The translations under genes were made by a program, and so were the position numbers. DNA of 64,000 nt from Bacteroidia bacterium (GTDB lineage: Bacteria; Bacteroidota; Bacteroidia; UKL13-3). Within the stretch, counting starts at the first letter, position 1; each line of letters opens with the position of its first letter. Location of the stretch: assembly GCA_044370475.1 (NCBI GenBank), contig JBILVK010000005.1, positions 1,147 through 65,146 on the forward strand. Direction: 5' to 3'. The notes beneath the pieces are model-generated. The model was given only the letters and a program-made list of their open reading frames with translations. It did not search any database and had not been told where the DNA came from. This document shows, one piece after another, positions 3,001 to 60,201 of this stretch.

Positions 3001-6000
3001 ACAACAGTGCTTGGATTAACCAAGATTGCAACCACATTCGATTTTAAATCCAATCCGCAATCGCTGTGAACTACTGCATAGTAATAGGTAGTCCCAGCAT
3101 TGCTTGTAGCTATTGAATAAGTTTGGTTCGAACCAACCAATGTTCCACCAACGTTTGAATTAACGGCATTGCTATACCAATTGTAAGTAATAGTACCCGT
3201 TCCCAAACCAGTTACGCTCAAATCTGTAGCAGTAGCATTCTGACAATAAGTAGCGCCACTTGGCTGCGCAGTAATGGTAGTTGATGGATTAACAGTTACA
3301 GTTACATTATTAGTACCAGAACATCCATTATTGCTTAAAGTATAAACATAAGTAACAACTATCGGACTAGTAGTTGTATTGATTAAAGTTTCGCTGATTC
3401 CATTTGAGCCATTACCTGCAACATTGCTTATTCCAGCAACTGCATCTCTTGTCCAAGTAAACGCCGCGCCAGGAGTGGCACTCGTTGGTGTATAAGAAAA
3501 CACAGTTCCATTGCATATTGCTGCAGGTGTTAAACTGCTAGATAAAACAGGTGTTGTATTCACTGTTATCGTTGAAGTAAAATTATTTCCAGAGCAACCA
3601 TTTGCCACTGGAGTAATGGTAAATACCTCGTTTTGGGTTGTAACACCAGCGTTCGTTAAGGTTCCAGAAATAGGCCCATTTGCATTGGCACCATTTGCTA
3701 TTCCAGATACATTATTACTGTTACTGGTCCAATTATAGGTAGTTCCAGAAACATTGCTACTTAATGCAATATCAGAAATGGCAACTCCAGAGCACAAAGA
3801 CTGAGAAGAAGGTAGGGCCGATCCAATTGGCTTAGGATTTATGGTTACTGTTAAAGTTGCAGGTGTTGGATTAACACAACCTGCACTTGAAGTTAAATTT
3901 AAAGTATAAGACTCTGGCAATGCATTGGCAGAAGTATTTGTTAAAGTCTCAGTTATTGGTCCACCAGCTGGCATGGCATTCGGTGTTGGTGTTATGATGC
4001 CAAACTGATTGAACATAGATGTGTTCCTTACCCATGTAAATGATCCCGCATTGGCAACATTTCCTGCTGCTGCATAACTCAAAGCAGAACCACTACAAAC
4101 ACTCGCGGTGGTGTTTGTTAAGATTGGCATTGGATTAACAGTTAAGGTAAGTTCGCTTGTTGCATAACAGCTAGTTGAACTCGCATTTTCTACACGTGCA
4201 TAAATCACCTGCGAACTGGCTGTTGTATTTGTGAATGGCGATGCCAAAGCATTGATATCATTTTGAGCATCGCTTAAACTTGCATGGTATGAAATGGTAA
4301 CACCTGCTTGCGAAGCGCCTACTGTGGCATCTGCACCAGTTAAGGTAAAGTTTACATAGCCATCATTGGTAACATCATCGCAACTTGCCAAACTTGCAGC
4401 ACTTGCAGTTGGGGTTCTGTAGAAATTGATGGTATACGTTTTAATGGTAGTTCCATCTTCGGCAGTAACTTTAACATCTACTGTATTGTTACCCGAAATT
4501 AAAGTTAAATTGATAGCTGCACCACTCGTAGCACTTGTGAATGAACCACTATTTAAACTATATTGAACACTTGCATTGGCATCAACGAGTGTTGGCGTAA
4601 CACTCATGCTTGTTGCGCCATTTGCAATACAAGTTGAATAAGTAAGGGTATTAGCATCAAAGCTAGGAGCAAGTGATCCTGAACCAATTGTTAATGTAGA
4701 TAAATTTGCATTGGTGTTAGCACTTCCTCCAAATGAGAATGGTGAAAATGTACCTGCATAATCAAATGAAACAGTATAAGGATTCGTTCCCGATGGCATG
4801 GCAGTATTACCAGAAACCTCAGTCCATTGTCCACCCGTGTAATGCATCAATACTTTTCTTTGTGTATTTGAGCCACTCAATAAATCTCCATTATTGTATT
4901 GGAAACTAAGAGTAACAGGCGAAGCTGGTATTCCACTTGGGGTAACATTCCAACTTCCTTTAAAAGTTCGGGCAGCGGTATAACTACTTAATGTGCCTCC
5001 ATTCGGATAAGATGCACTCATTGAAATGGTATAGTCTAAACCTTGTCCGTTTGAAATTGTTATTGGGGTGGCACTTTCAGACCATCCTCCTTTTGCCACA
5101 TTAAATGTTCTTGGTGCTACACCAATATTTTTTATCTTCAAAAATCCACCCGCAACACCAATTCTACCCGAACCTGTCATGGTTGCTCCATCTTCGAGTG
5201 TAATTGTTCTGCTATAATAGATTTCTGGTGTTCCAATAATATTTAAGTTATTGGTTATCTTTAATGGCACCTGAATGGATCCATTGCCGTTAAAGGTAAA
5301 ATTATAAAAAGTTATTTCACCGCCATAATTTTCAATGTGGTGGTTGTTTGGTCCCTGAACAGAAACTGTTCTGCTATTGGCGTTAAAGGTTCCAGAGTTT
5401 CTAATAAAAACACTTTGGAGAATCAAATCACCTCCATTAGCGTTTGATAAATTGATGGTACCATTATTTGAAAAAATGTCGGAAACAGAACCCGTACCTG
5501 CAGTTCTTGAGCTTGAAATGGAACCAAAGTCCAAAATCACCCCATTGTCTACGGTCAAAGAACCAACACCAACACTACCTGTTGGCCACTCATTGCCAAC
5601 ATTGATAGTACCTGTTCCAGAATATTGAAGATGCGCATTTGAATAACTTGGCTTATTTACAATCGACCCGCCTACATTAATTCTTATAATGCCATTTAAG
5701 GTCGAATTGGCACCAAAATCTACAGCTCCACTTACATATGCGTTAGCAAATGCTACTGTTCCACTTATGGTAGCAGAACCAGCAAAATCAAACGTACTAA
5801 TGCTTGTAAAGGTTCCATTATTATTGGTAATACTGCCCCCATTTTGCACAGTTAATGTATTTACATTATGACTAAGGCTTTTTCCACTATTGATGGTTAA
5901 GCTATTGATTGTTGCATTTGTGGTCAAAACAATTCCTGTTGCATCAATAACCACATTAGCTCCTGAAGGAGGTACAATATTGCCATCCCAAGTGGAAGCA

Positions 6001-10900: not shown

Positions 10901-11543
10901 CCCTGTCGCGGTGTGCGTCAATGGCAGCCTCACTAATCATGGCTTTTATCACCTCATCCTTTAGCACATTTACCTCGCGTAACTCATGCGAAGTTCTAAA
11001 TCCATCAAATATATTCAAGAAAGGAATTTTAGCATCGAGGGTGGCAGATTGACAAACCAAGGCCATATCCATCACCTCTTGGGCATTGTTGCCAAACAAC
11101 ATGCTAAAGCCTGTAGCCCTTACTGCCATTACATCAGAATGGTCGCCAAAGATAGACAAAGCATGTGTAGCCAAGGTTCTTGCCGCCACATGAAACACCG
11201 CCGGAGTAAGTTCACCAGCAATTTTATACATGTTTGGAATCATGAGCAACAAGCCCTGCGAGGCAGTAAAAGTAGAAGCAATAGCTCCTCCTTGTATGGC
11301 ACCATGAATGGCCCCAGCAGCACCTGCTTCACTTTGCATTTCCATGACGCGCGGTACTTGCCCAAAAATATTTCGCCATCCTTTTGCACTCCATTCATCC
11401 ACCCATTCGCCCATGGTAGAGCTTGGCGTAATAGGGTAAATAGCACAAACTTCACTTGTTTTGTAGGAGATGTAAGCTGCGGCCTCATTGCCATCCATAA
11501 TGCTCACTTGGTTCAAACCGTCTTTTTTATCTTTAACTTCCAT
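7992..11543 (-). CDS. nifJ: pyruvate:ferredoxin (flavodoxin) oxidoreductase
   Basis: 1183 aa. Two 4Fe-4S ferredoxin motifs (CTQCGKCFFICP, CTGCTLCVEFCP). TPP-binding GGDGWAYDIGFGGLDH. Single-chain PFOR length and N-terminus (MDGNEAAAY). Confidence 0.95.
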   Translation of the reverse strand: MEVKDKKDGLNQVSIMDGNEAAAYISYKTSEVCAIYPITPSSTMGEWVDEWSAKGWRNIFGQVPRVMEMQSEAGAAGAIHGAIQGGAIASTFTASQGLLLMIPNMYKIAGELTPAVFHVAARTLATHALSIFGDHSDVMAVRATGFSMLFGNNAQEVMDMALVCQSATLDAKIPFLNIFDGFRTSHELREVNVLKDEVIKAMISEAAIDAHRDRALSPEHPVIKGTAQNPDVYFQNREAANSYYNAVPGIVQSKFDLLGELTGRKYKLFEYYGHAEADRLIILMGSAVGTVQETVDYLLSKGEKVGVLAVRLFRPFSIDAFINEIPATVKQIAVLDRCKEPNSMGEPLYMDVVNAYNESMEGKHPHIVGGRYGLSSKEFTPAMVMAVYEEIKKEHPKNHFTVGIEDDVTHLSLSYDHVFNLDEQHAFRGLFFGLGADGTVSANKNSIKIIGEKTDNHVQGYFVYDSKKSGSLTSSHLRFGKNPIRGSYLVASASFVACHHFNYLFKFDILKDAAPGGVFLLNAPYEKDEVWGRMPAKIQEEIKHKKLRFYAINAYTVAKESGMGNRINTILQTCFFAISNILPREEAIAKIKESIYETYWKKGESIVNKNYEAVDQTLANLYEIDYSQESIGSRPLDLAVPNSAPEFVRDVLGKIIAGEGDELPVSAFPVDGTFPSGTTQYEKRNIADAVPVWDTDLCTQCGKCFFICPHAAIRPKVYAKEHLDHAPEGFKHVAPIGKEFDKAAEAYTLQVSTEDCTGCTLCVEFCPIESKTEPGHKAINMVDKTALQEKEIKNWDYFLQLPELDRSRVNKNTIKGSQFFQPLFEFSGACAGCGETPYIKLLTQLFGERMIVANATGCSSIFGGNLPTTPWSQTTDGRGPAWANSLFEDNAEFGLGIKMANDHKRLRAEFLLNELRYEIGDELVTAIQSAPEKTEAEIHHKHDLLKVLKEKLKHTHTVQAQNLYHLADFLADKSVWIIGGDGWAYDIGFGGLDHILSTGENVNILVLDTEVYSNTGGQKSKSSPIGASAKFAVNGKTTGKKDLAMQAIAHGTAYVAQIAMGGNDVHTLRTILEAEAYPGPSLILAYSHCIAHGIDMAHGADEQDFAVKSGYWPLFHYNPMKPKGERMVVDSKEATIPLSEFMYHENRFNVIKAKDPELAERFLQQAEEARASKWDRLQTLKGL

Positions 11544-11742: not shown

Positions 11743-12333
11743 TTAAGAATAAATAATTAACAAAATTAACAAGATTACCGCAACAAAACCAACATACGCA
11801 CTTGCAGCTATTCCTACTACATATGTTACAATTGTTTTGCCCTTTTCCTTGCCATACACATCCAAACGCTTAATGCCATCCAAAGGAATAACAACAAAAT
11901 TTAAGCTATCCACAGAATATTCGTTGATATACAAATGCACCTCCGTGCTGGGGTCTCCCGACCTATATTTATACCTATTTCCATGCCGCCTCTTGGCCAA
12001 TTTATAAAACTCATGATCTATTCCCAAAGGAGTCATTTTCCCTGTAAGCAAACTGTTTGTTTTATCAACCTCTGGGTAGGATAAATGCCACACACCATTG
12101 TCTGTATGCACCACAATATATTTGTCGCGCCGCACTGCACCATCAACCTCGGTACCATCAGTTGTGGTAGCAGCAATCTTAAAATAGTGACAACCTTGCA
12201 AGGTCAACAACATCGCAGGTAACAAAACAAAAATTGCAAATTTCGGTCCGAACCGAAGCGCCTTTAACACCTTTCTTAAACCCGATTTAGCTTGGATACT
12301 CACGCGTAAGAACTTAGAATCTATATCCAACAT
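11743..12333 (-). CDS. hypothetical lipoprotein with C-terminal TM helix
   Basis: Lipobox-like AMLLTLQGC after a basic N-region. C-terminal hydrophobic helix. The true start may lie downstream of 12333, because the first 20 nt overlap the upstream gene. Confidence 0.5.
   Translation of the reverse strand: MLDIDSKFLRVSIQAKSGLRKVLKALRFGPKFAIFVLLPAMLLTLQGCHYFKIAATTTDGTEVDGAVRRDKYIVVHTDNGVWHLSYPEVDKTNSLLTGKMTPLGIDHEFYKLAKRRHGNRYKYRSGDPSTEVHLYINEYSVDSLNFVVIPLDGIKRLDVYGKEKGKTIVTYVVGIAASAYVGFVAVILLILLIIYS
12245..12254 (-). repeat. over-represented word family, variant GGTTCGGACC
   Basis: The plus strand reads tttcGGTCCGAACCgaag. Confidence 0.9.
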
Positions 12334-13186: not shown

Positions 13187-13269
13187 TTAAAAGTAAGCTC
13201 AAAAATAGCACTTATTATTCCAATATTGCATACTAAATTTCTATAATGGTATTTTTAAAATTCAACTTA

Positions 13270-13797
13270 CTATCCAAGCTTATAATGCGCTTGGATCAAG
13301 CCAGATGAAAATGATTTTGAACCCAGCAACTGCAGCGCCCTTTCTGGAATGCCTTCTTTAAATAGCTTGGTGCCAGCACCCAAAATAACGGGTATGGTAG
13401 ATATAATAATTTCGTCCATTAATCCCAATTGCAACAAAGCATTTGCAGCATCTGCACCACCATCACAAAATATGTTTTTACCGCCTTTTGCTTTTAAGGT
13501 CTGAACCAATTCGCGCAAATCGCCGGTATAAAAATGGGTATTCCCAATGCTATCTTTAGCAGTGCGCGTTAGGATATAACTCTCCTTATCAGCATGCGGA
13601 AAAACCGGCACTTGCTTCATTATCCAATCATAGGTCTTTCTACCCATGATTACCGTATCAACAGATTGGGTAAAATCAACATATCCATAATCTTCACCAG
13701 GGGTTTCTACCATTGACAGAAAACTCAAATCGTCACCAGGTCCGGCTATGTAACCATCTAAGCTAGCAGCAATGTATAAAATAACTTTCATCGGCAT
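13270..13797 (-). CDS. dihydrofolate reductase family protein (RibD C-terminal domain type)
   Basis: VILYIAASLDGYIAGPGDDLSFL and VDTVIMGRKTYDWI motifs, 175 aa. Confidence 0.8.
   Translation of the reverse strand: MPMKVILYIAASLDGYIAGPGDDLSFLSMVETPGEDYGYVDFTQSVDTVIMGRKTYDWIMKQVPVFPHADKESYILTRTAKDSIGNTHFYTGDLRELVQTLKAKGGKNIFCDGGADAANALLQLGLMDEIIISTIPVILGAGTKLFKEGIPERALQLLGSKSFSSGLIQAHYKLG
13498..13507 (-). repeat. over-represented word GGTTCAGACC (exact)
   Basis: The plus strand reads aaGGTCTGAACCaatt. Decoded as L-V-Q-T in the DHFR-like gene. Confidence 0.95.
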
Positions 13798-14704: not shown

Positions 14705-15267
14705 TACTTAATTTTTTGCAAGCTGTTCATATCGGAAAACTGCTTTTTGTGCTTTGGAAACTCTGCTTTAAAGCTAGCCATCATTTTCTTAAATTCTGCC
14801 GTTCCACTGGGTACCACCTTGCCACCAGAAACCCATTTAATTAGGGTCTCATTGTTAAAATAATACCAATTCTCTGTCATAGATTTTATCTTGGTACGTG
14901 GGTTAACAGACAAAGGCGATTCGTACACAGAATTCTTCGCATAAATAACAATAAAGGCTCCTGCATCATTTACATACTCATCGGCTTCCACTTTGCTAGT
15001 ATCTGTATAAAAATTAGCATTGATCATGCGCAATTTTGTGCCTTCAAAATACCCAAAAAAAGCAGTGCCTTCTACTTTGGTTGTTGGTGAGTAAATCGAT
15101 AGGCTCTTCCTTTTGGCATCTATGGCCAAGAATTGCGATTTAACAACTGCTACCGACTTTACGGTATCAATTTTGGCAAGCGCAAAGCCATGCATTGAAA
15201 CAGCGTTTATAGCATTGCTTGGTTCAGACCAAAGCAAAGAAAATAACAAAGAAAATAGTAGGTTCAT
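14704..15267 (-). CDS. hypothetical secreted protein
   Basis: 187-aa ORF with N-terminal hydrophobic leader. Its stop overlaps the next start by 1 nt. No recognised family. Confidence 0.5.
   Translation of the reverse strand: MNLLFSLLFSLLWSEPSNAINAVSMHGFALAKIDTVKSVAVVKSQFLAIDAKRKSLSIYSPTTKVEGTAFFGYFEGTKLRMINANFYTDTSKVEADEYVNDAGAFIVIYAKNSVYESPLSVNPRTKIKSMTENWYYFNNETLIKWVSGGKVVPSGTAEFKKMMASFKAEFPKHKKQFSDMNSLQKIK
15221..15230 (+). repeat. over-represented word GGTTCAGACC (exact)
   Basis: Context gcttGGTTCAGACCaaag. Decoded as W-S-E-P on the opposite strand. Confidence 0.95.
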
Positions 15268-30811: not shown

Positions 30812-30830
30812 TTGCTAATCAATTTTTTTC

Positions 30831-30840
30831 GGTCTGAACC
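30831..30840 (-). repeat. over-represented word GGTTCAGACC (exact, extended form)
   Basis: The plus strand reads tttttcGGTCTGAACCaaag, intergenic, 20 nt upstream of the 728-aa gene start. Confidence 0.95.
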
Positions 30841-31020
30841 AAAGATAAGTTTGGAGCAAATTAATAAATAAACAAACATTCTCTATACCCATTCAAAACT
30901 TGATTTTAATAGGCATCATTCTTATTCAAACTACCTATTTCACTTTGTTAATTTTATTTTTCAATTAATTGGGCGTACAAACATTCCCACCTAAATTCGC
31001 AACCTTAAGTAAAATCAACT

Positions 31021-37386: not shown

Positions 37387-38667
37387 TTACTTCACAAAAA
37401 ACGGGAAATTAGCACATGCCACTTGTTGGTGCTTATCCTCAATATAAACAAATAGCCTATAAGCTCCTTTTTGAAAGGGTGCTTTAAAACTATAACCCGA
37501 CTCTGCATTTCCTTTCATCAAAACAGGGATGGCATCGGGCTTTATTTCTGCATCTCCACCACTTTTGGTAAACTCACTTTCGGGCAAGATTTCCCATTTG
37601 TAAATGAGGCTGCTTGGCTCTGTATGTTGCACCTTTAAATCAACTTGTATCGAAGCGCCTTTCTTGCTTATAACACTGGCTGTCGCGGCGCTTTGGTTCA
37701 GACCGAAAGAAAGGATTTGTGGCGCCCAAAAAGCAGGCTTTGAACCGCTCCATTCTTCTTGTAACACATTCACCGCTTCTGTTTGCCTATCACCCACAAA
37801 AACACCATACCAAGTGGGTGTAGTTTCTTGTTTTTGTCCCCATAAAAACACATAAGAACCCAAGCATATATTGCTGTCTTTTTTAATAAAATCTCTATAG
37901 CGCTCTCTGTAGGTTATTGCCTTTTCGCTAGAGGTTTGTTCTATGGCTGCACCCCAACTTGTTTTGGCAACTTCCCAATGGCCGTTTGGACCCCATTCTG
38001 TTACCATATAGGGTTTATCCCAGCCATAAAGCCTAATCTTTTCTGGCAATGCGGGCAAATCGCCATAAGTATTTACACCTAATATATCTATGTCTTTACA
38101 ATGGGCTTTTATTAAGGCAACTTCTGGCGCATCTATGCCTGCTGTAACCACGCAGGTAGGGTGGTTTTTATCTTCTTCATGAATCATAGCAGCTATGTTT
38201 TGTACGGCATGCCAAACCGCAAAATCTGTATAAGCCAAATCTACCTCATTGCCCACTCCCCACATCAACAATGCTGGGTGATTTTTATACTTGTTTACAA
38301 CCGATTTAAATTGCGCTACTTGGTCTTCACAGGCCCATTTATCGCTATAATCAAAGCCATGTCGCTCAGGTGGCATCCACAATCCCAACATCACCGTTAA
38401 TCCCTTTTTCTGTGCTTCATCTAATACCTCCTGCGCGTTTTCTGCTCCCCATAAGCGCACAGAATTTCCACCTGCCGCTACTACCTTATCCATAAAAACA
38501 TGTCCGCCCGCTCCCTTCACATAATAAGGGCTATTGCCTCTTTGCAACTCATAAACACCTGCTCCTTTAGGCACTACCACGACCTTAATTGCTTGCGCTT
38601 GCACTTGGTAAACAAGTACCAGAAATAGGCCCAAAAGCAACATTATTCTTCTCATATCAATTAGCAA
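37387..38667 (-). CDS. glycoside hydrolase, clan GH-A TIM barrel (GH2-TIM/GH5-like) with C-terminal beta-sandwich
   Basis: NHPALLMWGVGNEVD (acid/base NE) and YMVTEWGP (nucleophile E). Signal peptide. Last gene of the glycan operon, overlapping the GH16 gene end by 11 nt. Confidence 0.7.
   Translation of the reverse strand: MLIDMRRIMLLLGLFLVLVYQVQAQAIKVVVVPKGAGVYELQRGNSPYYVKGAGGHVFMDKVVAAGGNSVRLWGAENAQEVLDEAQKKGLTVMLGLWMPPERHGFDYSDKWACEDQVAQFKSVVNKYKNHPALLMWGVGNEVDLAYTDFAVWHAVQNIAAMIHEEDKNHPTCVVTAGIDAPEVALIKAHCKDIDILGVNTYGDLPALPEKIRLYGWDKPYMVTEWGPNGHWEVAKTSWGAAIEQTSSEKAITYRERYRDFIKKDSNICLGSYVFLWGQKQETTPTWYGVFVGDRQTEAVNVLQEEWSGSKPAFWAPQILSFGLNQSAATASVISKKGASIQVDLKVQHTEPSSLIYKWEILPESEFTKSGGDAEIKPDAIPVLMKGNAESGYSFKAPFQKGAYRLFVYIEDKHQQVACANFPFFVK
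37695..37704 (+). repeat. over-represented word GGTTCAGACC (exact, extended form)
   Basis: Context tttGGTTCAGACCgaaag. Decoded as F-G-L-N-Q in the clan GH-A hydrolase gene. Confidence 0.95.
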
Positions 38668-42713: not shown

Positions 42714-43886
42714 CTATTTGCGTTTATCAATAATTATATCATCAAAATACACTTCGCCTTTTCCACTAAATTGAATCAGAAATTGCTTAAATCTGGCGCC
42801 ATTAAAACCTGCCTTATCAAAATTAAACTCGGTAAAAGGTACCACCACCTGCTGCCATTTTCGGTCTGAACCAATCTCGCTTAAATAACTTTTCTTCAAA
42901 GGCACAAAAACACTTTTACCATCATAATCCTCAAAACCAAGCATCAAATTTGAATTGCTTCCTAAGTCTGATCCAGCCACCCTACATGTTAAAACATAAG
43001 CACCTAATGAATCTGGAAAAGAAATGGCTTGCCATCCTTCCCAATTCATCCCTACTTGTTTATTTCCTTTTGGAGAAAACTCTCCATTCCATTGCAAATA
43101 CAAGGCCTTGTTGCCTTCACCTTCTTCTACCACCTGCACATTTCTTCCAGGCAGGTTTCCCAAACCCCAAGTATTTTGTAATTCATCTTTAAACAATACC
43201 ACCGGGAATTTTTGCGTACTTGTTTGTCCATACTTTTGCACTGCCCCCGCTTGCACCAAAGCCCCACCAATGCTTATCTCATCAATGAACAATGCTCCTG
43301 CTCCCTGACATTCAATATTCAAACTTTTGATATTGCTAAAGTCGCACAAAGGCGCAGCAGCTTGCAAAAATCCACTTAAGGGTATACTTACTTTTTGCCA
43401 AGTTTCAGTTATAGGATACCTCTCCAAATGCTTCGCCTTTAATAACATCGCAGATTGCGTTCCAGCATAGTCTTCTAACAACAAAATAAAAGTGGGTATA
43501 AATTGATTGCCTGTAATAGACCTCACATAAAAATCTATGCTACCTGTTTGCATCACATCCGTCAAATCCTTTGCAGCATAACCATTCCACCCTATTCCAA
43601 ATCCTATCCACGGACAATTACCTTCTTTGTTCCAAACCAAACCTAAACAAGATTTTCCTTTATAAAAAACAGTATCAACGCGTGCAAAATTCTTGCAACT
43701 AGTCTTTTCCATTCCCCATACATCCACCGTTTGGTCATGGTAAACTTCCCTATCGGTAAACAACCTATTTGCACTTTGCTCATAGGTATTTCCCCACTCA
43801 TCTACCAATTGCGTTTGATGCATACGCACTCCACAACTTGCTATAAGTATTAGCCCAAATAACCCTAAGAATAATTGATTTTTCAT
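42714..43886 (-). CDS. lipoprotein with two CBM-like repeats (putative glycan-binding)
   Basis: Lipobox LIASC. Two repeats of the form G..L.L.WN......W.G.G..W.G.....D and W..V..P...F. 390 aa. Confidence 0.55.
   Translation of the reverse strand: MKNQLFLGLFGLILIASCGVRMHQTQLVDEWGNTYEQSANRLFTDREVYHDQTVDVWGMEKTSCKNFARVDTVFYKGKSCLGLVWNKEGNCPWIGFGIGWNGYAAKDLTDVMQTGSIDFYVRSITGNQFIPTFILLLEDYAGTQSAMLLKAKHLERYPITETWQKVSIPLSGFLQAAAPLCDFSNIKSLNIECQGAGALFIDEISIGGALVQAGAVQKYGQTSTQKFPVVLFKDELQNTWGLGNLPGRNVQVVEEGEGNKALYLQWNGEFSPKGNKQVGMNWEGWQAISFPDSLGAYVLTCRVAGSDLGSNSNLMLGFEDYDGKSVFVPLKKSYLSEIGSDRKWQQVVVPFTEFNFDKAGFNGARFKQFLIQFSGKGEVYFDDIIIDKRK
42863..42872 (-). repeat. over-represented word GGTTCAGACC (exact, extended form)
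   Basis: The plus strand reads ttttcGGTCTGAACCaatc. Decoded as I-G-S-D-R-K in the lipoprotein gene. Confidence 0.95.
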
Positions 43887-46651: not shown

Positions 46652-48583
46652 CTAAAAGTATAATTTTAGCTCAACTGTTGTTTCTGTTCCTTTAATATTA
46701 TCTAGCACAAAGCTCTTGTCTTCTTGCTTAAACCACCTTCTGCGCACATAGAAATAGGTGTTTCGCGAAATGCGATAATCCAATCCCAATCCATATAAGG
46801 TGCCTTCTTGATTCACCGCATCGTTGTTTATACTGCCCAATACCCCATCATTATTATCGCCTCGGTTCATGGCACTATTGCCCTTGATATATTCTTTGCC
46901 ATAAGTGCTCACCAAACTCAAATCTTTGCCCAACATAAATATGGCATCCAACTCATGATAATAGGTGCGCAACAAAGCCTTATTGCTAAAATTAGGTAAA
47001 AGCTCAAAACCCTCTTGGGCCGAACCAAAAGACCCCACATACAACACATAAAATGGCAGCAAACTAAAGTTCACCTTTTGCTTCAATTGAACCTGCAACA
47101 TGTTAAATCCCAGCAAAGAATTTGGCATACCCATGGCATTGGTATCTGTTATCGACATCACCTGCGAAAATCCCCTAAAATAAGAGGTCCAATTGTTGTA
47201 CGTCCCTACATTGTTAGTAAACGGCGTAAAACGAGAAAAAGGTAAGGAGTTAATTTTATGTCCAAATGCCAACTGACGGCTTACTGACCTAACCTCCATC
47301 GAACTCATATTGCCTATATTCAACTTGGTTGTTTTGGTTATATCAAACCAAGCATTAATGCTTATTCCTTTTCTGTTATTGCTAACCTGACCTACATCGG
47401 TAATTGATCCAGCAAAATTACTGATACCACCACTTCCTCCCAGTGTTGAGCCATTTTGGTTCAGCGCTGCTGTACTAACAATATTGGTATTGGCACTTAA
47501 GAAATTGCCATAGTAATTAATAAACTCCGGACTCAAATAAAATGCTTCTACTTCTATAGGGAAATAAGTTGCTTTTGCGGGCGATTTAATACTTATTCTT
47601 CCTGCATCACCCCAGCCTGCTTTTTGCACCTGAGAATACAATTGTCCCCTCCCTGCCTCTGCTGCCACAACCCAACCTTTGTATTGCAAATCATAAGAAA
47701 AAGTGTACAACTGAATGCCCGCCTGCTCCTTAGCTACCGAATCTACATACAACCTATAATCCATGCCATTAAATCCAAACGTGTGGTTGTTCAACTTCTT
47801 TCTTACCCTTCCACCCAATGTATAAGAAGGAATACCATTTGCTGTAAAGGCCTGCGCTGGCGTTGTTCCATACAAAAACCTAAATGAAACATCTCCTGGC
47901 AATTCTGCCCCATCTATTAACAAGCCTTTAAATGGCTGCATCCCAAAGCGCATGTCGCGACTAATATTCCCAAACTCATAGTAGTTAGAAGCCCTATCAA
48001 AGGATATGGCATTTCCCTCCCATGGCCAACGTTCATAAATACTGTAGCGTTGGTAACCAATAAAGCTACTAAATACCATGCCACTCACATCTACCCAATT
48101 TATTCCGCCCATATGGGCCGTAAATTTCCCAATATCTGTTTGTATACTGCCCGTTAAATTAATCCCTAAATTGAGGTTAACTGGACTCGATCCTGGCAAG
48201 CCTGTAAAATTGTGGTACAAGGCATAATCCATCCCAATAAAGGTTTTAGAAGTGGGCTGAACCGATAAATTTAACAGCATTAAAGGCGGGTCTCTGTAAA
48301 CATCACCTGTGCCCAAAATATAAGCAGGTGCACTGGCATAAGGATTACCTGGTATCACCACAAAAGGCTGCTCCAAGTTTCTGTTTATGCCAAAAAATCG
48401 GTAATAGCCACCAACCGTAAGCTTCTTTAAGGGTACCACTGCGGCTGGACTGCTCGGAATAGGCAGGCTTAATTCCTCCATCAAGCTATCTGCCATTTGC
48501 CCAAAACTCGCATTTGTTGCCAAAACTGCCATTAGCAGCCAGCTTGCAACAATTTTTCCTAAAAATTTGTAAAGTGATTTCAA
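46652..48583 (-). CDS. large outer-membrane beta-barrel protein (not SusC-like), first gene of the glycan operon
   Basis: 643 aa. Signal peptide. C-terminal ..VELKLYF. Tyr/Gly/Asn-rich strands. No plug domain recognised. Confidence 0.6.
   Translation of the reverse strand: MKSLYKFLGKIVASWLLMAVLATNASFGQMADSLMEELSLPIPSSPAAVVPLKKLTVGGYYRFFGINRNLEQPFVVIPGNPYASAPAYILGTGDVYRDPPLMLLNLSVQPTSKTFIGMDYALYHNFTGLPGSSPVNLNLGINLTGSIQTDIGKFTAHMGGINWVDVSGMVFSSFIGYQRYSIYERWPWEGNAISFDRASNYYEFGNISRDMRFGMQPFKGLLIDGAELPGDVSFRFLYGTTPAQAFTANGIPSYTLGGRVRKKLNNHTFGFNGMDYRLYVDSVAKEQAGIQLYTFSYDLQYKGWVVAAEAGRGQLYSQVQKAGWGDAGRISIKSPAKATYFPIEVEAFYLSPEFINYYGNFLSANTNIVSTAALNQNGSTLGGSGGISNFAGSITDVGQVSNNRKGISINAWFDITKTTKLNIGNMSSMEVRSVSRQLAFGHKINSLPFSRFTPFTNNVGTYNNWTSYFRGFSQVMSITDTNAMGMPNSLLGFNMLQVQLKQKVNFSLLPFYVLYVGSFGSAQEGFELLPNFSNKALLRTYYHELDAIFMLGKDLSLVSTYGKEYIKGNSAMNRGDNNDGVLGSINNDAVNQEGTLYGLGLDYRISRNTYFYVRRRWFKQEDKSFVLDNIKGTETTVELKLYF
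47017..47026 (-). repeat. over-represented word family, variant GGTTCGGCCC
   Basis: The plus strand reads cttGGGCCGAACCaaaa, inside the OMP gene (F-G-S-A-Q). Confidence 0.85.
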
Positions 48584-48772
48584 GTGCGGCTATTTTTATG
48601 GTAAATGTCATCACTCTTTAGCAAAAACCAACTTTTTTACACCCCAACTCACCTACATCAAACAAAGTCTTCCTTACATCATGGGTACTACAAAAAATGT
48701 CAAATTACTGATAACAAACTAATTATTATTTGCATTCTTCTGAAGTTTTATTATCATTTGCATGTCCAAATC

Positions 48773-51658
48773 ATGAATAAAAACCAAAAAATACACCTTT
48801 TTGTAAGATCAATACTGGCCATGTTGTGCCTTTTTGCGCAGCCAATTTATGCGCAAAGTCTCTTGGCAGCCCCAATGGTTATTAATTATACCAAACAGGT
48901 TTATAAAGGGGGTACGCAAACTTGGGATATTTGTACAGGTAAAAACGGACTGGTATTCTATGCCAACAACAATGGTTTATTGCTTTTCGATGGAAAAGAC
49001 TTTAGTAATTTTCCCCTCCCAAAAAACACCATCCTTAGGTCCATCTTTTATGATGAGACAACTCAAAGAGTTTATGCAGGCGGACAAAGTGAAATTGGTT
49101 ATTACCAATTAGAAAAAAACGGCAAAATACACTTCCAATCCCTCGCTCACCTGCTTTCTCCCAACAACAAGGGGTTCGAAGATGTTTGGGGAATTGAGGG
49201 GCACAACAACAAAATATTCTTCCAAACCACCCAGCAAATATTTTGCTACGATGGCAAACAAATTACCAGCCTCAAACCTTCAGAAAACCTCCTCGAAAAC
49301 CTACATCTAGTAAATCAAAAACTTTTCTTAACCGATATTTCTGGCAGCATTTACGAGTATAAATTTGGTGCTTTTAAACCCCTACTGCTTAATACCAAGC
49401 TCGATATTTCTGCCATTCTTCCTTACAATAACAAGGATTTGTTTATCACCACCTACAAAAATGGAATCTATCTTTTGATAAACGATAGCCTTCAAAAGGC
49501 AAAATTTAACTACCCAGAAATTCAACAAAGTAGAATCTATAGGGCCATTAAATATGGCAACCATTACCTCCTAGCCACCAACAGAGGTGGACTGTTTTTC
49601 TTAGATAACACTGGCAAAATCATCAACCGCATTAGTGTTCAAGACGGACTACAAAACAACAATGTACTCAGCCTGCATCAAGACAAAAACAAGAATGTTT
49701 GGCTTGGTCTAGATAACGGTATCGACCTGGTTAGACTTAATTATCCCTTTGGGTATTTGTACCCAGATGGCATTCTTAAAGGCACTGGATATGCCATGAC
49801 GCAGTTTGGCCCCAATTACTATTTTGCTACCAATAACGGATTATATACAAGGCCCATCCAAAGCAATACAAATACCGCTTTCCAATTGGTAGAAAACACA
49901 GAAGGCCAAGTTTGGTGGGTGCAAGAAATCAATGGCAGCCTCTTTGCCTCTCACCACGAAGGGCTTTTTCAAATCAATGGAACCTCCGCCCAAAAAATAT
50001 CCAATATTCGCGGTTGCTGGAAACTCCTTCCCCTCAAAAAACACCCAGGCTATTTTGCCCTTGGAACCTATAACGGAATCAATATTTTTAAATGGGAAAA
50101 CAATAGCCTCCAATTTGTCTCCAAACCCTTGCCATTCAAGGAATCGAGCCGCTTCTTAGAAGAAGATGAATTTGGAAATATTTGGGTGGGTCATCCCTAC
50201 AAAGGCATCTATAAAATCGGTCTGAACCAATCACTGCTCAATATAGCTTCCGTTAAACGTTACGGCAGCAAAGAAGGTCTGCCCAATGAAACAGAAAACT
50301 ATGTGTTTAACCCCGACCAAGGTTTATGCTTTGCCACATCAAAAGGTATCTATGCCTATAACCCAGATTTGGACAAGTTTCAATTGGCACAATCTCTTCA
50401 TCCATGGCTCGATTCGAGTCTTACCTACAAACGAATTTTTCAAGGAAAAAATGGCCATATTTGGTATATCACCCAATCCGAAATTGGCTACCTAAACCCT
50501 AGCTACAATGGGGTAGAATACAGCTACCAAAAAATCAAATTGCCACAATTGGATCAAAACTTGGTGGGCGGATTTGAGTTTTTGGAGGAGTGCCAAAATG
50601 GTAACCTTTTCCTAGGTGTAGAAACGGGTTTTGTACAAATAAATCTCCAGCAAATTGGTCGGTTCAAACAGGATCCACCACAGGTGATTGTTACGTCTAT
50701 TAACTCCATGGTGGAGCCAGATTCTGTCTATTATCAGTATGTAGCGCTTGGTTCAGACCAACTGGAAATTGATGATAGGTCTGTGTATTTCTCTTTGAGC
50801 TCACCTAATGCAAACTTTTATAACGACCTCAATTTCTCGAGTTATTTGGAGGGTTGGGACAAAAATTGGTCGGCCTGGAAACCCAATAATACCCGCGAAT
50901 TTAGTCGCCTCAGCTATGGCGATTATGTGCTGCGCATTAAGGCGCGCTGCATGGGCTTAGAAGGGCCAGAAACCGCTATTCGCATTCATATTCCTGCACC
51001 TTGGTATTGGACCCGCTTTGCCAAATTTGTGTATTCTATTATTGGTATTGTATTGGTGTTGCTTATTGGTTTTTACCCGCAAATGTTGGTACGCAAAAAG
51101 GCCAGCAGAATTATTGCCGAAAAGGATGATCACCACAAAAAACAAACGGAACAACTGCGCTTAGAAAAAGAAAAGCAGGAGAAAGAATTAATTGAGTTAA
51201 AAAACCAACAACTTCAAAAAGAGGTGGAGCACCAAGGCAAAGAACTGGCTTCTTCTACCATGCATTTGGTTCAGAAAAGCGAAATGCTTTTAAGCATAAA
51301 AGATAAGCTGAAGCACATCTCTAGCATTAGCAACGATCCCAAGATTAAGCCCGAAATTAGTGAGCTCATTAAAAACATTGAAAAGGATACCTTGATTGAT
51401 AAAGATTGGCAAAAATTTGAATTGTATTTTAACAATATTCACGACAGTTATACCCAGAGTTTAAAGGAGCGGTTCCCTGTATTAACGGCCAACGACATAA
51501 AAATGTGTGCTTACCTGCGGATGAATCTTTCTACCAAAGAAATTGCCACCATTCTTAACATTTCAACCCGAGGCGTGGAGATAAGTAGGTATAGATTGCG
51601 CAAGAAAATGGAATTAGAAAACGGTATTAACTTAACCGAATATCTATCTAAGCTTTAG
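48773..51658 (+). CDS. transmembrane one-component sensor: beta-propeller repeats plus Y_Y_Y domain, TM, coiled coil and LuxR-type HTH
   Basis: I prefer the start MNKNQKIHLFVRSILAMLCLFAQPIYAQ. Repeated propeller units (GL..F.......). Y_Y_Y-type segment (YSYQ..W..W...REFSRLSYGDYVLRIKA). TM helix FAKFVYSIIGIVLVLLIGFY. C-terminal LTANDIKMCAYLRMNLSTKEIATILNISTRGVEISRYRLRKKM. Confidence 0.85.
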   Translation: MNKNQKIHLFVRSILAMLCLFAQPIYAQSLLAAPMVINYTKQVYKGGTQTWDICTGKNGLVFYANNNGLLLFDGKDFSNFPLPKNTILRSIFYDETTQRVYAGGQSEIGYYQLEKNGKIHFQSLAHLLSPNNKGFEDVWGIEGHNNKIFFQTTQQIFCYDGKQITSLKPSENLLENLHLVNQKLFLTDISGSIYEYKFGAFKPLLLNTKLDISAILPYNNKDLFITTYKNGIYLLINDSLQKAKFNYPEIQQSRIYRAIKYGNHYLLATNRGGLFFLDNTGKIINRISVQDGLQNNNVLSLHQDKNKNVWLGLDNGIDLVRLNYPFGYLYPDGILKGTGYAMTQFGPNYYFATNNGLYTRPIQSNTNTAFQLVENTEGQVWWVQEINGSLFASHHEGLFQINGTSAQKISNIRGCWKLLPLKKHPGYFALGTYNGINIFKWENNSLQFVSKPLPFKESSRFLEEDEFGNIWVGHPYKGIYKIGLNQSLLNIASVKRYGSKEGLPNETENYVFNPDQGLCFATSKGIYAYNPDLDKFQLAQSLHPWLDSSLTYKRIFQGKNGHIWYITQSEIGYLNPSYNGVEYSYQKIKLPQLDQNLVGGFEFLEECQNGNLFLGVETGFVQINLQQIGRFKQDPPQVIVTSINSMVEPDSVYYQYVALGSDQLEIDDRSVYFSLSSPNANFYNDLNFSSYLEGWDKNWSAWKPNNTREFSRLSYGDYVLRIKARCMGLEGPETAIRIHIPAPWYWTRFAKFVYSIIGIVLVLLIGFYPQMLVRKKASRIIAEKDDHHKKQTEQLRLEKEKQEKELIELKNQQLQKEVEHQGKELASSTMHLVQKSEMLLSIKDKLKHISSISNDPKIKPEISELIKNIEKDTLIDKDWQKFELYFNNIHDSYTQSLKERFPVLTANDIKMCAYLRMNLSTKEIATILNISTRGVEISRYRLRKKMELENGINLTEYLSKL
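50219..50228 (-). repeat. over-represented word GGTTCAGACC (exact)
   Basis: The plus strand reads aatcGGTCTGAACCaatc. Decoded as I-G-L-N-Q in the sensor gene. Confidence 0.95.
50750..50759 (+). repeat. over-represented word GGTTCAGACC (exact)
   Basis: Context cttGGTTCAGACCaact. Decoded as L-G-S-D-Q in the same sensor gene, in the opposite orientation to 50219. Confidence 0.95.
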
Positions 51659-54917: not shown

Positions 54918-54990
54918 GGTGCGGTAGCTCAGTCGGTAGAGCAAAAGACTGAAAATCTTTGTGTCGGGGGTTCGATTCCCTCCCACACCA
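54918..54990 (+). tRNA. tRNA-Phe (anticodon GAA)
   Basis: Hand-folded cloverleaf. Acceptor GGTGCGG/CCACACC. D arm GCTC-AGTCGGTA-GAGC. Anticodon arm AAAGA-CTGAAAA-TCTTT. Variable loop GTGTC. T arm GGGGG-TTCGATT-CCCTC. Discriminator A. CCA is not encoded. Confidence 0.9.
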
Positions 54991-55005
54991 CAAACAAAAA
55001 ACAGA

Positions 55006-55040: not shown

Positions 55041-55310
55041 TGTCTTTTAGTGGAACTATAGTGGAACTTTTGGGATATTTGACTTTTTAATCTTTGTCTA
55101 ACGAATAACTTATAACCCCTGTTTTATTAATCGAGGCATAACCTGTTTTATGATATAAGTGGAAATTCCGGACATATTGACCCCCTCTTACCGGCGCAAA
55201 CTGACCCCCTCTTTTCCGGAGTAAATTGACCCCCTCTTACCGGCGCAAAATGACCCCCTAAAATAGCATGGTTGTTTAAGCGATTATAGTCACTGTCTTT
55301 GTTTGCCCAA

Positions 55311-56885: not shown

Positions 56886-56893
56886 AAACAAAC

Positions 56894-57634: not shown

Positions 57635-58431
57635 AAATCCCTTTATTTGTATGTGACTAGTTGCTTAAATAATCAATGCTATTTTGCATCACCAAATGGG
57701 GGGTCAATTTCAAACGGAAACAGGGGGTCAATTTCACCGGTATATGCAGTTAAGGATGTTTATATTTGTGGTGGTGGGACCATAATGATAGATTGTAGAA
57801 ATTAATAAAACCCAGTATCCAACTCAGGTATGTGCCAATTTATTTAGAAAATATTAGCATCAATAAAAATAGGTTTCTCATTGGTTTGTTCCTACTTATC
57901 CCAATAATTTATAATTGCCTTTATTCCCTCTATATTAGCAAAATAGCAAGCAAGATTTTGTAATAAAAAATATTAAATCAGGTTTCCCGGATTTAATATT
58001 CAACCCTTATAGGAATAATAACTCAAGATGTTCATCTTTGATTCTTTAAGCCAATTTTATGAACAAAATGATAGAAAACCTCGAATCAACATTATTCTGT
58101 GTCATACAGGTTAATGAGTACTACCTACATCAAATGTTAAACACTAATATTCCATTGCGTACACCAACTTTTGGAGTTCCACGCCATACAACAGTAAATA
58201 TAATTGGGCACGGAATGTGAATTTTAGTTCAAATGCGGTAGGCAGATTTTACGGAGCTCTTTTATCTGGCTTTCCCTGCAGATGCATCAAAATAAAGTAG
58301 GCATAAAGCCAGACCAAAAAAAACTTCAATTATCTAAACCACCTCATTTAGTTTATAAAAATGCCTGAAAAATAGCATTTGAGTTTTAATCTTTTTACTA
58401 TATTGGCTCTTCATTAGGGCATAGGATTCAG

Positions 58432-60201
58432 ATGAAAAAAAGGGTTCAAATAGTAAACAAAATCTATCTTTTTACGAAGCTTATAGGGATATCGTGCGCT
58501 ATATTTTGGTTCGAACCGACCCTTGCACAAACAAAAATTGATAGCCTTAGAACCTTACTTGAGGCCGAAACAAACTTGCAACAAAGGGCAAACCTTTATA
58601 ATGAACTTGCCTTAGAACAAAGGACATTCGACCTAAACAGCGCTTTTTCCTACGCAAGAACGGCACAAGAAATTGCTACCCAACATAGTTTTACGCGTGA
58701 ATTAGGCGTGGCCCAAAGTGTTTTGGGCTTACTTTACTCCTATACCGACCTACTAGATAGTGCTGTTTATTGGAACTATTCGGCCATAGAATTGCTGCTG
58801 CCCAGTAGAGATAGTTTAGAGATTTCCAGGAATTACAACCGCTTAGGGTCAGACTACCTATTACTCTTGCAAACAGATCAAGCCGCTGAGTACCTATTGC
58901 AAGGCGTGCATTGGTCCAATACGCCAAAAGTTAAAACCGTTGCGTTTAACAACCTTGGCATGATTAGTAAAAAAAATGGCGACTATGCCAAGGCTGTTTT
59001 TTATTATTTAAATGCTTTGAAGGAGCATGATAAAATTAATGAACCTGTTAGCAGAATGAGGGTGCTAAATAACTTGGGTGCGCTCTACATTCAAAAGAAG
59101 GATTATGTAAAAGCACAAAATTGTTTTGAGGAAGCTTATGAAATTGTAAAGATAAGCAATGATCAAGAAAGTTTGGCCCAAGTGTTTGGCGGATTAGGCA
59201 TAACCACACACCATTTAGGTACTAAACAAGATGCCTTAAACTATTTTATTCAATCTGCTGATTTGTTTAAAAAACTAGGACTTACAAGCGATTATGGCAA
59301 ACAAATTCTCTCCATTGCTGACATTCAAAGTGAGTTAAAAAAATATAAGCTTGCTGAGGAAAACTACCATTTGGCAGAGCAAATATTAATTGAGAAAAAA
59401 GATACTTACGCCCTATCCGCCGTATATAATAATTTATCTGAGTGTCTCATTAACCAAAATAAGCCCAAACAAGGGGCCCAATATTTGGAAAAAGCCTACA
59501 AATTATCCCTAACCTATAAAGATCTTAATTTTAATCGCCTCATCGTAAAAAATCTTAGCAGCATTTACGAAACGTTGGGAGAACCAGAAAAAGCCCTTAA
59601 ATACCGAAAAATATATGAGGAATTGCATGAAGAAATGATAAATGTGGCCGAAAATGTAAAGTATGCAGAACTAAACCACCAGTACGAAACAAGCAAAAAA
59701 GAAAAGAAAATTGAACAACAAAAAGTTCAAATCACAGAGATGACAAATAGTCGAAAAAGCTACTTATATATCCTTGCCATTCTTACTTTGCTACTAATTT
59801 TGTTTGGTTTCCTGTACAGAAAAAGAATAAAACACCAACAATCTCTCGAAGAAAATATTTCTTCCATTGCCAAGCAAATTTCTTCCCTTAAATCAGAAAA
59901 TGTCGCACTCAAGTCAAAGTTGGTTCAGACCGAAACAGAACTGCAGTCATTAGTACTAAAATACTCAGAAGCTAAAGAAAAATTGCCTCCAAATTTAGTG
60001 GCGCTTTCTAAACGCGAATATGAAGTCCTACTTTTTATAGCCGAGGGCCTGAGCGACAAAGAGATAGCAGACAAAATCTTTGTGAGCGTCAATACAGTGA
60101 AAACACATGTGCGCAGAATCTATGATAAGCTACTTGTGAATAGCAGAATGGAAGCAACTAAAATGCTTAATAACTACCAATTGTTAGCCGAGGCTTCTTA
60201 G
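58432..60201 (+). CDS. TPR-repeat, single-TM, LuxR-type HTH regulator
   Basis: Multiple TPR-like units (NNLGALYIQKKDYVKAQNCFEEAYEI and others). TM helix YLYILAILTLLLILFGFLY. C-terminal LSKREYEVLLFIAEGLSDKEIADKIFVSVNTVKTHVRRIYDKL. Confidence 0.8.
   Translation: MKKRVQIVNKIYLFTKLIGISCAIFWFEPTLAQTKIDSLRTLLEAETNLQQRANLYNELALEQRTFDLNSAFSYARTAQEIATQHSFTRELGVAQSVLGLLYSYTDLLDSAVYWNYSAIELLLPSRDSLEISRNYNRLGSDYLLLLQTDQAAEYLLQGVHWSNTPKVKTVAFNNLGMISKKNGDYAKAVFYYLNALKEHDKINEPVSRMRVLNNLGALYIQKKDYVKAQNCFEEAYEIVKISNDQESLAQVFGGLGITTHHLGTKQDALNYFIQSADLFKKLGLTSDYGKQILSIADIQSELKKYKLAEENYHLAEQILIEKKDTYALSAVYNNLSECLINQNKPKQGAQYLEKAYKLSLTYKDLNFNRLIVKNLSSIYETLGEPEKALKYRKIYEELHEEMINVAENVKYAELNHQYETSKKEKKIEQQKVQITEMTNSRKSYLYILAILTLLLILFGFLYRKRIKHQQSLEENISSIAKQISSLKSENVALKSKLVQTETELQSLVLKYSEAKEKLPPNLVALSKREYEVLLFIAEGLSDKEIADKIFVSVNTVKTHVRRIYDKLLVNSRMEATKMLNNYQLLAEAS
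58508..58517. repeat. over-represented word family, palindromic variant GGTTCGAACC
   Basis: Context ttttGGTTCGAACCgacc. Decoded as W-F-E-P in the TPR-LuxR gene. Confidence 0.9.
59922..59931 (+). repeat. over-represented word GGTTCAGACC (exact, extended form)
   Basis: Context gttGGTTCAGACCgaaac. Decoded as L-V-Q-T-E in the TPR-LuxR gene. Confidence 0.95.

Follow-up and report, generated by a model that had tools for sequence, protein, structure and literature searches.

The window analysed here, by which we mean the whole 64-kb stretch of DNA, is a chromosomal stretch of an uncultured member of the Bacteroidota that is known from JGI metagenomes. It encodes proteins with sorting domains of the type IX secretion system (T9SS), a glycan-utilisation cluster, PFOR, RF3, HrpB and UbiB. 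Distributed through the genes of the window, and also found between them, is a short DNA word, GGTTCAGACC or its complement GGTCTGAACC, that is repeated far more often than would be expected by chance. The nature of this word is the subject of this study, and its sites are collected in Table 1.

There are 13 exact copies of the word in the window, eight on the plus strand and five on the minus strand. An earlier reading of the sequence alone (the sequence-only reading) had placed all of these correctly, and its estimate that about 0.1 copies should occur by chance is upheld by 100 dinucleotide-preserving shuffles, which give 0.10 expected copies and a maximum of two. With an order-3 Markov background the expectation is 0.05, so that the word is ~266-fold over-represented. 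An unbiased k-mer census of the window against the same background arrives at the same point, since its top 9- to 12-mers are overlapping sub-words of the motif, GGTCTGAACC and CGGTCTGAAC. The variants previously listed are equally real: GGTTCGAACC at 3125, 7815 and 58508, GGTTCGGACC at 12245 and 16880, and GGTTCGGCCC at 20211 and 47017. If the two central nucleotides may be any purines (R), the resulting GGTTCRRACC has 20 distinct sites in the window (13 with AG, three with GA, two with AA and two with GG) against 0.26 expected, a density of ~1 per 3.1 kb (3.1 per 10 kb). Near-matches are also in excess. Twelve copies differ from the AG word at one position, where ~1.55 are expected (1.65 with zero or one mismatch, less the 0.10 that are exact); this ~8-fold excess is as expected of a balance between mutation and drive. 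The list of one-mismatch copies in the sequence-only reading needs one correction, in that the sequence at 26725, GGTTCGAGCC, differs from the AG word at two positions and from the GA form at one. Its description of the flanks was accurate, with TT preceding 10 of the 13 copies, G following nine, and TGGTTCAGACCGAAA present five times.

Pooled copies from the clade that carries the word define a 14-nt quasi-palindrome, TYGGTTC|RRACCRA (Y, pyrimidine), one half of which is strict and the other relaxed. The strict half-site is T-Y-GGTTC, with T at –2 in 98–100% of copies and Y at –1; in the relaxed half the RR dinucleotide is followed by ACC, R at +1 and A at +2 (67–94%). Beside the core there is a weaker A/T-rich flank, GAAA(A). 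The pooled consensus is TYGGTTCRRACCRA, and the main form in the window is the 16-mer TTGGTTCAGACCGAAA. The word exists in dialects that differ in the central dinucleotide, which is AG, AA or GA. The GA dialect (GGTTCGAACC) is a 10-bp perfect palindrome with an embedded 6-bp palindrome TTCGAA, and its perfect symmetry extends over 16–18 nt, whereas the AG dialect that is the main one of the window, and the AA dialect, are not palindromic. The original description of a 10-mer with variants thus holds as to the reality of the word, but this is better seen as a family of 14-nt quasi-palindromes, in which the GA, AA and GG ‘variants’ are the main dialects of sister species. Beyond ~3 nt on either side there is no homology between the flanks, and their composition is that of the background. 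The word is therefore not a miniature inverted-repeat transposable element (MITE) or a repetitive extragenic palindromic (REP) sequence, the kind of longer element that the sequence-only reading had named among the findings that would overturn its own explanation; moreover, copies have been gained by substitution without insertion or deletion (see below).

The constraint acts at the level of the DNA. Eleven of the 13 exact copies are in coding sequence, five in the sense and six in the antisense direction, and two (24180 and 30831) are intergenic, each with divergent genes on its two sides. Translated, they give G-S-D, G-L-N, V-Q-T or W-S-E-P. When the window is taken together with blocks of the metagenome-assembled genomes (MAGs) of relatives, four to five reading frames are used, on both strands. 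Shuffling synonymous codons within the genes leaves ~3 copies that cannot be touched and creates ~0.2 new ones, compared with the 13 observed. Because a synonymous shuffle destroys the word, the constraint is on the DNA and is driven neither by peptide nor by codon usage, in agreement with what had been concluded from the multiple frames, the two strands and the intergenic copies. The MAG blocks contain 27 sense, 24 antisense and 21 intergenic copies; the last are 29% of the total, and correspond to ~3-fold enrichment in intergenic DNA. The frames used within these blocks are limited to tolerated peptides, namely LVQTE (24 copies), FGLNQ (15), FRSEP (9) and GSDR (3). The similar numbers of sense and antisense copies show that the word is not an RNA signal, and Rfam and tRNA scans of the window revealed no RNA family behind it, returning a tRNA-Phe only.

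The word shows no preferred orientation. The 17 asymmetric sites of the window are divided nine plus to eight minus without runs, and AA copies in a relative (L103, below) are divided five to four. This, with the five sense and six antisense exact copies, bears out the earlier argument against a polar signal of the Chi or KOPS (FtsK-orienting polar sequence) type. The GC-skew profile of the window is dominated by the strand of the genes and carries no replichore signal. The spacing of sites in the window is not significantly regular (coefficient of variation 0.74 versus 0.95, P = 0.11). At 4202–4228 of L103 (MAG JAIOYZ01) an AG and an AA copy lie side by side in opposite orientations, TTTCGGTCTGAACC-taatttt-GGTTCAAACCGAA, between divergent genes; this pair could form a hairpin with a 13-nt stem.

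How widely is the word distributed? A search for the 16-mer TTGGTTCAGACCGAAA covered 185,579 species genomes, and at least 94 blocks matched. Among the matches listed, the only genomes with multiple hits are six MAGs labelled Bacteroidia, Bacteroidetes or ‘bacterium’ (JAWXAZ01, CAILJQ01, JAIOYZ01, JAKRSG01, CANHDN01 and VEQB01), and the single hits are at chance level and scattered over phyla. The blocks of the multi-hit MAGs hold extra copies that were not the seeds of the search; 344 kb of the single-hit genomes hold none. Two of the six MAGs have PFOR orthologues with ~80% DNA identity to that of the window.

We graded relatives by the amino acid identity of their HrpB to that of the window, and examined the homologous contigs. 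The AG word is present five times in 22 kb in L101 (93% identity) and three times in 10 kb in L124 (87%). L102 (83%) has two GA copies, both perfect 18-nt palindromes TTTTGGTTCGAACCAAAA, together with two AA copies, and L125 (81%) has four GA copies in 12.7 kb, TTCGGTTCGAACCGAA. In L103 (JAIOYZ, GCA_021740845.1; 79%) TTTTGGTTCAAACCGAA is found nine times in 17 kb. There are no copies in L126 (76%) or in L104, the complete genome of Bacteroidetes bacterium UKL13-3 (75%), and effectively none in L127 (75%), where there is one stray GGTTCAAACC in 20 kb. Thus the word is present in every sampled locus with at least 79% HrpB identity, at a total density of 2–4 per 10 kb in each, and is effectively absent at 75–76%. 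It is a property of one clade, at roughly the genus to family level. A metagenome scan based on RF3 yielded distant relatives only (64–74% identity) and served as a negative control: 80 RF3-homologue loci (976 kb of contigs from diverse Bacteroidota metagenomes) contain three GGTTCRRACC sites, or 0.03 per 10 kb, which makes the word ~100 times rarer there than in the window. A scan of IMG/VR gave 19 single hits, which fits chance, and no viral contig was enriched. In six contigs of the same population (L001–L006), 99.2–99.99% identical to the window, all sites are invariant, at a similarity too high to be informative on conservation. Assemblies made independently in several studies contain the word, whether drawn from JGI, NCBI MAGs or Logan.

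Within the clade the dominant dialect changes. AG is dominant in the window, L101 and L124, AA in JAIOYZ (22 AA compared with ~2 unascertained AG), and the GA palindrome in L125; GA and AA are equally frequent in L102. Codon alignments of the HrpB gene reveal how copies arise. In L103 GAGGTAAAAGAAAAG (E-V-K-E-K) has become TTGGTTCAAACCGAA (L-V-Q-T-E), and in L102 L-L-Q-N-K has become L-V-Q-T-E, in each case with no insertion or deletion. The gains seen in these alignments change two to four amino acids. Further gains or losses by substitution only are found at window position 31176 (with L124) and at 37695 (with L102). The word is therefore written into genes by point substitution, at the cost of several amino acid changes. 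Every copy in the HrpB gene is lineage specific, indicating a high turnover of sites.

Other sites persist. Those at 29917, 30831 and 33790 are kept in L101, and in L102 the orthologs of the first two are still present with the dialect switched, from AG to AA at 29917 and from AG to GA at 30831. This region of L102 is 65% identical to the window, and only 1.9% of its 10-nt windows are fully conserved. The copy at 59922 is matched at 16 of 16 nucleotides in MAG CAILJQ (L084), within an 18-nt identical run in a gene that is ~66% identical. A copy also lies downstream of the PFOR terminator in the window (GA, 7815) and in two relatives, L087 and L079 (both AG), where the surrounding DNA cannot be aligned. 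Thus the comparison of orthologues that the sequence-only reading had proposed as a check reveals sites that persist while their dialect switches in concert, and gains that are paid for in amino acids.

What process might generate such a pattern? The reading that we consider most likely, with a probability of about one half judged from the sequences examined, is that the word serves this lineage as its own mark of self-recognition on double-stranded DNA, and is linked to transformation. On this view a directional process would have multiplied it along the chromosome, and the likeliest such process is the biased uptake or processing of conspecific DNA in natural transformation. Slightly less securely, this clade of uncultured freshwater Bacteroidota may possess a true DNA-uptake sequence system, with species-level dialects that co-evolve with a receptor that does not rely on type IV pili. 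We infer from these patterns both that DNA uptake and transformation drive the process and that a dedicated receptor exists. In such a system a DNA receptor at the surface or in the periplasm would prefer fragments bearing the word; because the word has dyad symmetry, it is proposed that this would probably be a dimer, or have two similar halves that contact the DNA. Fragments with mutations that create or improve a copy would be taken up and recombined more often, and as a consequence copies would accumulate wherever they are tolerated by the proteome. Should the preference of the receptor for the central dinucleotide shift, the copies in the genome would follow, giving rise to the dialects.

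This reading draws on a combination of properties, that is, a long word that is free of orientation, tolerated in coding sequence and clade specific, that has dialects, that is gained by directional substitution and is accompanied by an excess of near-matches. In our analysis this evolutionary signature is that of uptake sequences of the DUS (DNA uptake sequence) and USS (uptake signal sequence) type, and of the cyanobacterial palindrome HIP1. Uptake enhancing sequences spread through biased uptake together with recombination. The likeness to DUS and USS had been pointed out in the sequence-only reading, and it gains strength from the confinement of the word to one clade, from its dialects and from the way in which orthologous sites switch dialect in concert.

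The DUS of the Neisseriaceae (ATGCCGTCTGAA and its dialects) is, like the present word, at least 12 nt in length, over-represented >100-fold, and found on both strands in genic and intergenic DNA. It has a family-level range, its dialects track phylogeny and are one or two bases apart, and point mutation is the source of new copies. In reverse complement the window word, TTTCGGTCTGAACCAA, even has the 7-mer GTCTGAA in common with DUS, which we regard as coincidence; this overlap apart, there is no sequence match to a consensus of the ATGCCGTCTGAA or AAGTGCGGT type. The two differ in phylum and in sequence, and the present word is quasi-palindromic, with one dialect fully so. Nor is any ComP-type pilin receptor or competence known for the present lineage. 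The USS of the Pasteurellaceae (AAGTGCGGT with AT-rich flanks) is comparable in that its conserved core is joined by a weaker A/T-rich flank, and in being mostly coding with a restricted set of tolerated frames. It also imposes amino acid changes, has no orientation bias and is accompanied by abundant one-mismatch copies. The sequences are unrelated, and the dyad symmetry and lower density are peculiar to the present word, for which a bias in uptake is a proposal. HIP1 (GCGATCGC) is also a hyper-abundant (quasi-)palindrome that is found in genes in all frames, is conserved between orthologues and is confined to one lineage. The extended form of HIP1, GGCGATCGCC, is built around CGATCG, and its arrangement, GG-CGATCG-CC, recurs in the GG-TTCGAA-CC of the GA dialect. 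In contrast, HIP1 is an 8-mer and a perfect palindrome, conserved phylum-wide and associated with the orphan methyltransferases DmtA and DmtC, whereas the present word spans 14 nt with asymmetric main dialects, has a range of approximately a genus or family and is not known to be linked to a methyltransferase.

As of 2025 uptake enhancing sequences were documented only in the Neisseriaceae and Pasteurellaceae (10.1101/2025.10.24.684340). In cyanobacteria the hyper-abundant HIP1 palindrome raises transformation efficiency (10.1101/2024.09.10.611283), and it has been proposed as an uptake tag (10.1101/2024.09.10.611283; 10.64898/2026.06.24.733823). Among the Bacteroidota, Riemerella columbina is naturally competent and prefers its own DNA, with no USS or other specific word identified (PMC7965970); Riemerella k-mer lists contained A-rich words only. 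Our search of the literature found no paper with TTGGTTCAGACC or its complement, and no description of a Bacteroidota uptake sequence. The earlier statement that nothing equivalent had been described in this phylum therefore stands, reviews and preprints to 2025–26 listing the Neisseriaceae and Pasteurellaceae alone, with HIP1 as the newly proposed addition in cyanobacteria.

A number of observations weigh against a role in uptake. The lineage is uncultured, known from metagenomes and MAGs, and its competence and DNA uptake are putative. The data are confined to the 64-kb window and ~400 kb of partly ascertained relatives. Neither the window nor the annotated flanking DNA that we examined encodes comEC, dprA, comF or a pilin, and NCBIfam and Pfam scans of the unannotated proteins of the window gave no competence, methyltransferase or obvious DNA-receptor gene. 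The density of the word (~1 per 3 kb) is roughly 3-fold below that of DUS and USS. Its quasi-palindromic layout is unlike that of the asymmetric DUS and USS, and is typical of the sites of dimeric proteins that bind or modify DNA. That sites hold their positions so strongly from species to species could equally be due to selection for what they do at those places. Lastly, terminator-type contexts are rare and there are only ~4 close inverted pairs among 171 sites, compared with about half of DUS and USS in terminator contexts or inverted pairs (10.1101/2025.10.24.684340).

Given its dyad symmetry, a dimeric DNA-binding protein, whether architectural or concerned with modification and repair, remains a rival to an uptake receptor. 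The best placed of these alternatives, though we think it unlikely, is that a dimeric chromosome protein peculiar to the clade, acting in nucleoid organisation, segregation, occlusion or a similar architectural process, binds the word at closely spaced sites, whose positions are kept by selection and which co-evolve with the specificity of the protein. The dyad-symmetric 14-mer with its strict and relaxed halves, the perfect palindrome of the GA dialect and the independence of orientation would all suit such a protein, and resemble the palindromic 12–16-bp sites of parS/ParB, NBS/Noc (Noc-binding sites), SBS/SlmA (SlmA-binding sites) and matS/MatP, which lie in genes in either orientation and are read by dimers on double-stranded DNA. 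So too would the persistence of orthologous positions while the dialect changes, and a spacing slightly, if not significantly, more even than random (P = 0.11, as above). Yet the observed density implies roughly 700–1400 sites per genome, where parS, NBS, SBS and matS number tens per genome and are regional. Moreover, turnover is high, all the copies in the HrpB gene being lineage specific, there are dialects, and one-mismatch copies are common. A cost of several amino acid residues is also more easily explained by drive than by the need for a site at an exact place.

Still less probable is that the word is a by-product of DNA modification or repair, as in the classical view of HIP1, in which a methyltransferase or nicking-repair enzyme that reads the (quasi-)palindrome tilts the repair of mismatches in favour of the word, with no role in uptake. 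This draws on the GA dialect GGTTCGAACC, a 10-bp palindrome with TTCGAA embedded, on its similarity of layout to extended HIP1, and on the origin of copies by point substitution; one study reports that the abundance of HIP tracks orphan methyltransferases (PMC4390886). However, the dialects that dominate in the window (AG) and in JAIOYZ (AA) are non-palindromic and lack TTCGAA, and no methyltransferase or Vsr-like gene is seen in the window. The specificity spans 14 positions, and we know of no methyltransferase or Vsr-type site of that length. The recent link between HIP1 and transformation also blurs this alternative into the uptake reading itself.

A polar signal, such as Chi, KOPS or SRS (SpoIIIE recognition sequence) or an architecture-imparting sequence, read by RecBCD/AddAB or FtsK, is nearly excluded. 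The word is over-represented and located inside genes, as such marks of ‘self’ or of direction on the chromosome are, and in the MAG blocks the G-rich strand holds somewhat more copies than the other (44 versus 28). Nevertheless, orientation is mixed within contiguous stretches, as described above for the window and L103. Chi, KOPS and SRS are asymmetric words of 5–8 nt that are strongly co-oriented with replication, whereas the present word has 14 informative positions and dyad symmetry, and its perfectly palindromic dialect cannot carry polarity.

Finally, a small mobile or repeated element of the REP, MITE or terminal-inverted-repeat kind, or an artefact of composition, peptide or assembly, is refuted for the copies in the window, since despite a 105-bp tandem repeat with the word in each unit in one relative there is no flank homology, most copies are in frame in conserved genes with no indel relative to orthologues, Rfam matches nothing except the tRNA gene, independent assemblies contain the word, and both synonymous-codon and dinucleotide shuffles remove it. 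The tandem repeat is in L096 (MAG JAWXAZ01, 2779–3104) and comprises four units of ~105 bp, each containing the motif as TTT(C/T)GGTCTGAACCAAACAA; three of these are identical to the 16-mer, and in the final unit one flank position is T instead of C. It is the only place found where the word belongs to a longer repeat.

Three further candidates were rejected. A superficial likeness of GGTTCGA in the GA dialect to the tRNA T-arm or B-box is not accompanied by extended homology. A promoter motif lacks a conserved TA/TTTG register upstream. For invertase sites the density is far too high, and the inverted pairs have no fixed spacing.

Table 1. Sites of the word and of its variants in the 64-kb window (+, plus strand; –, minus strand;., no strand assigned).
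Form	Position	Strand	Context
AA copy GGTTCAAACC	332..341	–	In giant adhesin gene
GA copy, palindrome GGTTCGAACC, flanks tttGG..CCaac	3125..3134	.	In giant adhesin gene
GA copy gtttGGTTCGAACCgaaaaa	7815..7824	.	Intergenic, downstream of PFOR terminator
AA copy cttGGTTCAAACCgtc	11510..11519	+	5′ end of PFOR gene, antisense
GG variant ttcGGTTCGGACCgaaat	12245..12254	–	GA palindrome at approximately corresponding position of L102 (8283), by coordinate extrapolation
AG copy attGGTTCAGACCtta	13498..13507	–	RibD_C-like gene, sense, L-V-Q-T; retained in divergent L001 allele
AG copy	15221..15230	+	Antisense in gene for 187 aa, W-S-E-P frame; identical in six same-population contigs
GG variant cttGGTTCGGACCaaaa	16880..16889	–	In HupE/UreJ-like gene
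Degenerate copy TTGGTTCGGCCCAAA	20211..20220	–	Intergenic; strong half-site intact, weak half-site mutated
One-mismatch copy attGGTTCAGACAaaaaa	20833..20842	+	
Full 16-mer TTGGTTCAGACCGAAA	24178..24193	+	Intergenic, between divergent genes 23526–24053 (–) and prfC/RF3 24347–25957 (+)
AG copy	26806..26815	+	Antisense in UbiB/ABC1 kinase gene, G-L-N frame
AG copy	29917..29926	+	Antisense in gene for 728 aa; ortholog site AG in L101, AA GGTTCAAACC in L102
Full 16-mer	30827..30842	–	Intergenic, ~20 nt upstream of start of gene for 728 aa; ortholog site AG in L101, GA palindrome in L102
AG copy	33790..33799	+	Antisense in DUF7948/SBBP/T9SS-tail gene; same context in three L101 paralogues
AG copy	34639..34648	–	Sense in DUF7948 gene, G-S-D frame
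One-mismatch copy GGTTCAGACA	36105..36114	–	Same variant word in aligned DUF7948 5′ block of L101 (14897), by coordinate mapping
One-mismatch copy GGTTCAGACA	36552..36561	+	Same variant word in aligned DUF7948 5′ block of L101 (15344), by coordinate mapping
Full 16-mer	37693..37708	+	Antisense in GH2-like gene; missing at L102 ortholog position, substitutions only, no indel
One-mismatch copy atgGGTTCAGACAgaaaa	39474..39483	–	In GH16 gene
Full 16-mer	42859..42874	–	Sense in CBM30 gene, G-S-D-R frame
Degenerate copy TTGGTTCGGCCCAAG	47017..47026	–	
AG copy	50219..50228	–	Antisense in hybrid regulator gene 48605–51658
AG copy	50750..50759	+	Sense in hybrid regulator gene 48605–51658
GA copy	58508..58517	.	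Close to 5′ end of TPR-LuxR gene
Full 16-mer	59920..59935	+	Sense in TPR-LuxR gene, L-V-Q-T-E; same 16-mer at ortholog position in L084 (MAG CAILJQ)

Several other features of the window and its relatives may be noted. A second, weaker word, GGTTTCTACC or GGTAGAAACC, is present in five copies at 941, 13702, 15500, 45364 and 53972. Its 9-mer is seen seven times where 0.84 are expected, and it shares the GGT....ACC frame of the main word, with flanks that are not conserved. Unrelated metagenome contigs of Bacteroidota (L131, L139, L145 and L205) have repeated 10-mers of their own, among them CTCGCAATGA / ACGAAGCAAT, shared by L131 and L139, and TAATAGGTAA, with ten copies in L205; they are probably elements of a REP-like or tandem type.

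A giant open reading frame on the minus strand (3–7157) encodes >2,385 amino acids and runs off the left end of the window. With its cadherin-like, PKD-like, RCC1-repeat and Ig-like domains and GCC/GGC-rich repeats, it is probably a cell-surface adhesin. The RibD_C-like gene and the DNA downstream of it (13150–13900, aligned with 40–790 of L001) are dense in single-nucleotide polymorphisms, with several percent divergence compared with <1% elsewhere. The product has 173 amino acids in four of the six same-population contigs (L001, L002, L005 and L006) and 175 in L003 and L004. This patch looks like an import by recombination, in which the word copy at 13498 has been retained. The same contigs differ in a strain-variable island (window 21140–22650, compared with 8061–10058 of L003) that contains no copy of the word; most carry DUF7149 and Bro-N genes there, and L003 has genes for a 506-amino acid protein with a T9SS-sorting tail and for Bro-N.

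An IS21-family element occupies 55170–57740, with istA at 55311–56885 (rve and Mu-transposase C domains) and istB at 56894–57634. Its termini carry TGACCCCC repeats, with four direct copies at 55178–55258 and two inverted copies at 57699–57730. The element adjoins the tRNA-Phe gene (54918–54991) and contains no copy of the abundant word.

Hyper-abundant recognition words are a phenomenon of a known kind. What is new here is the phylum and the sequence, which is quasi-palindromic and unrelated to those described before, and presumably also the machinery that recognises it; to our knowledge the Bacteroidota are generally without type IV competence pili. Sequence-specific DNA uptake is textbook knowledge for two proteobacterial families only, and both the reasons for uptake sequences and the co-evolution of word and receptor are debated. 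With its different word, dyad symmetry, clear dialects and orthologous sites that switch in concert, an independent system in another phylum would offer a fresh natural test of molecular drive against selection. Even if the word should prove to be architectural or linked to repair, a protein-overriding 14-nt word every ~3 kb, with dialects between sister species, is a genome-wide phenomenon undescribed in the Bacteroidota. In practice it could serve as a lineage barcode in the binning and assignment of metagenomic contigs, and as a handle for genetic tools if an isolate is obtained. If the uptake reading is correct this would be the first uptake-sequence system in the Bacteroidota, and the third or fourth known anywhere, and it would point to a new DNA receptor. 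It would also mean that natural transformation with a preference for DNA of the same species is frequent in an abundant environmental lineage, and that transformation shapes the populations of uncultured freshwater Bacteroidota.

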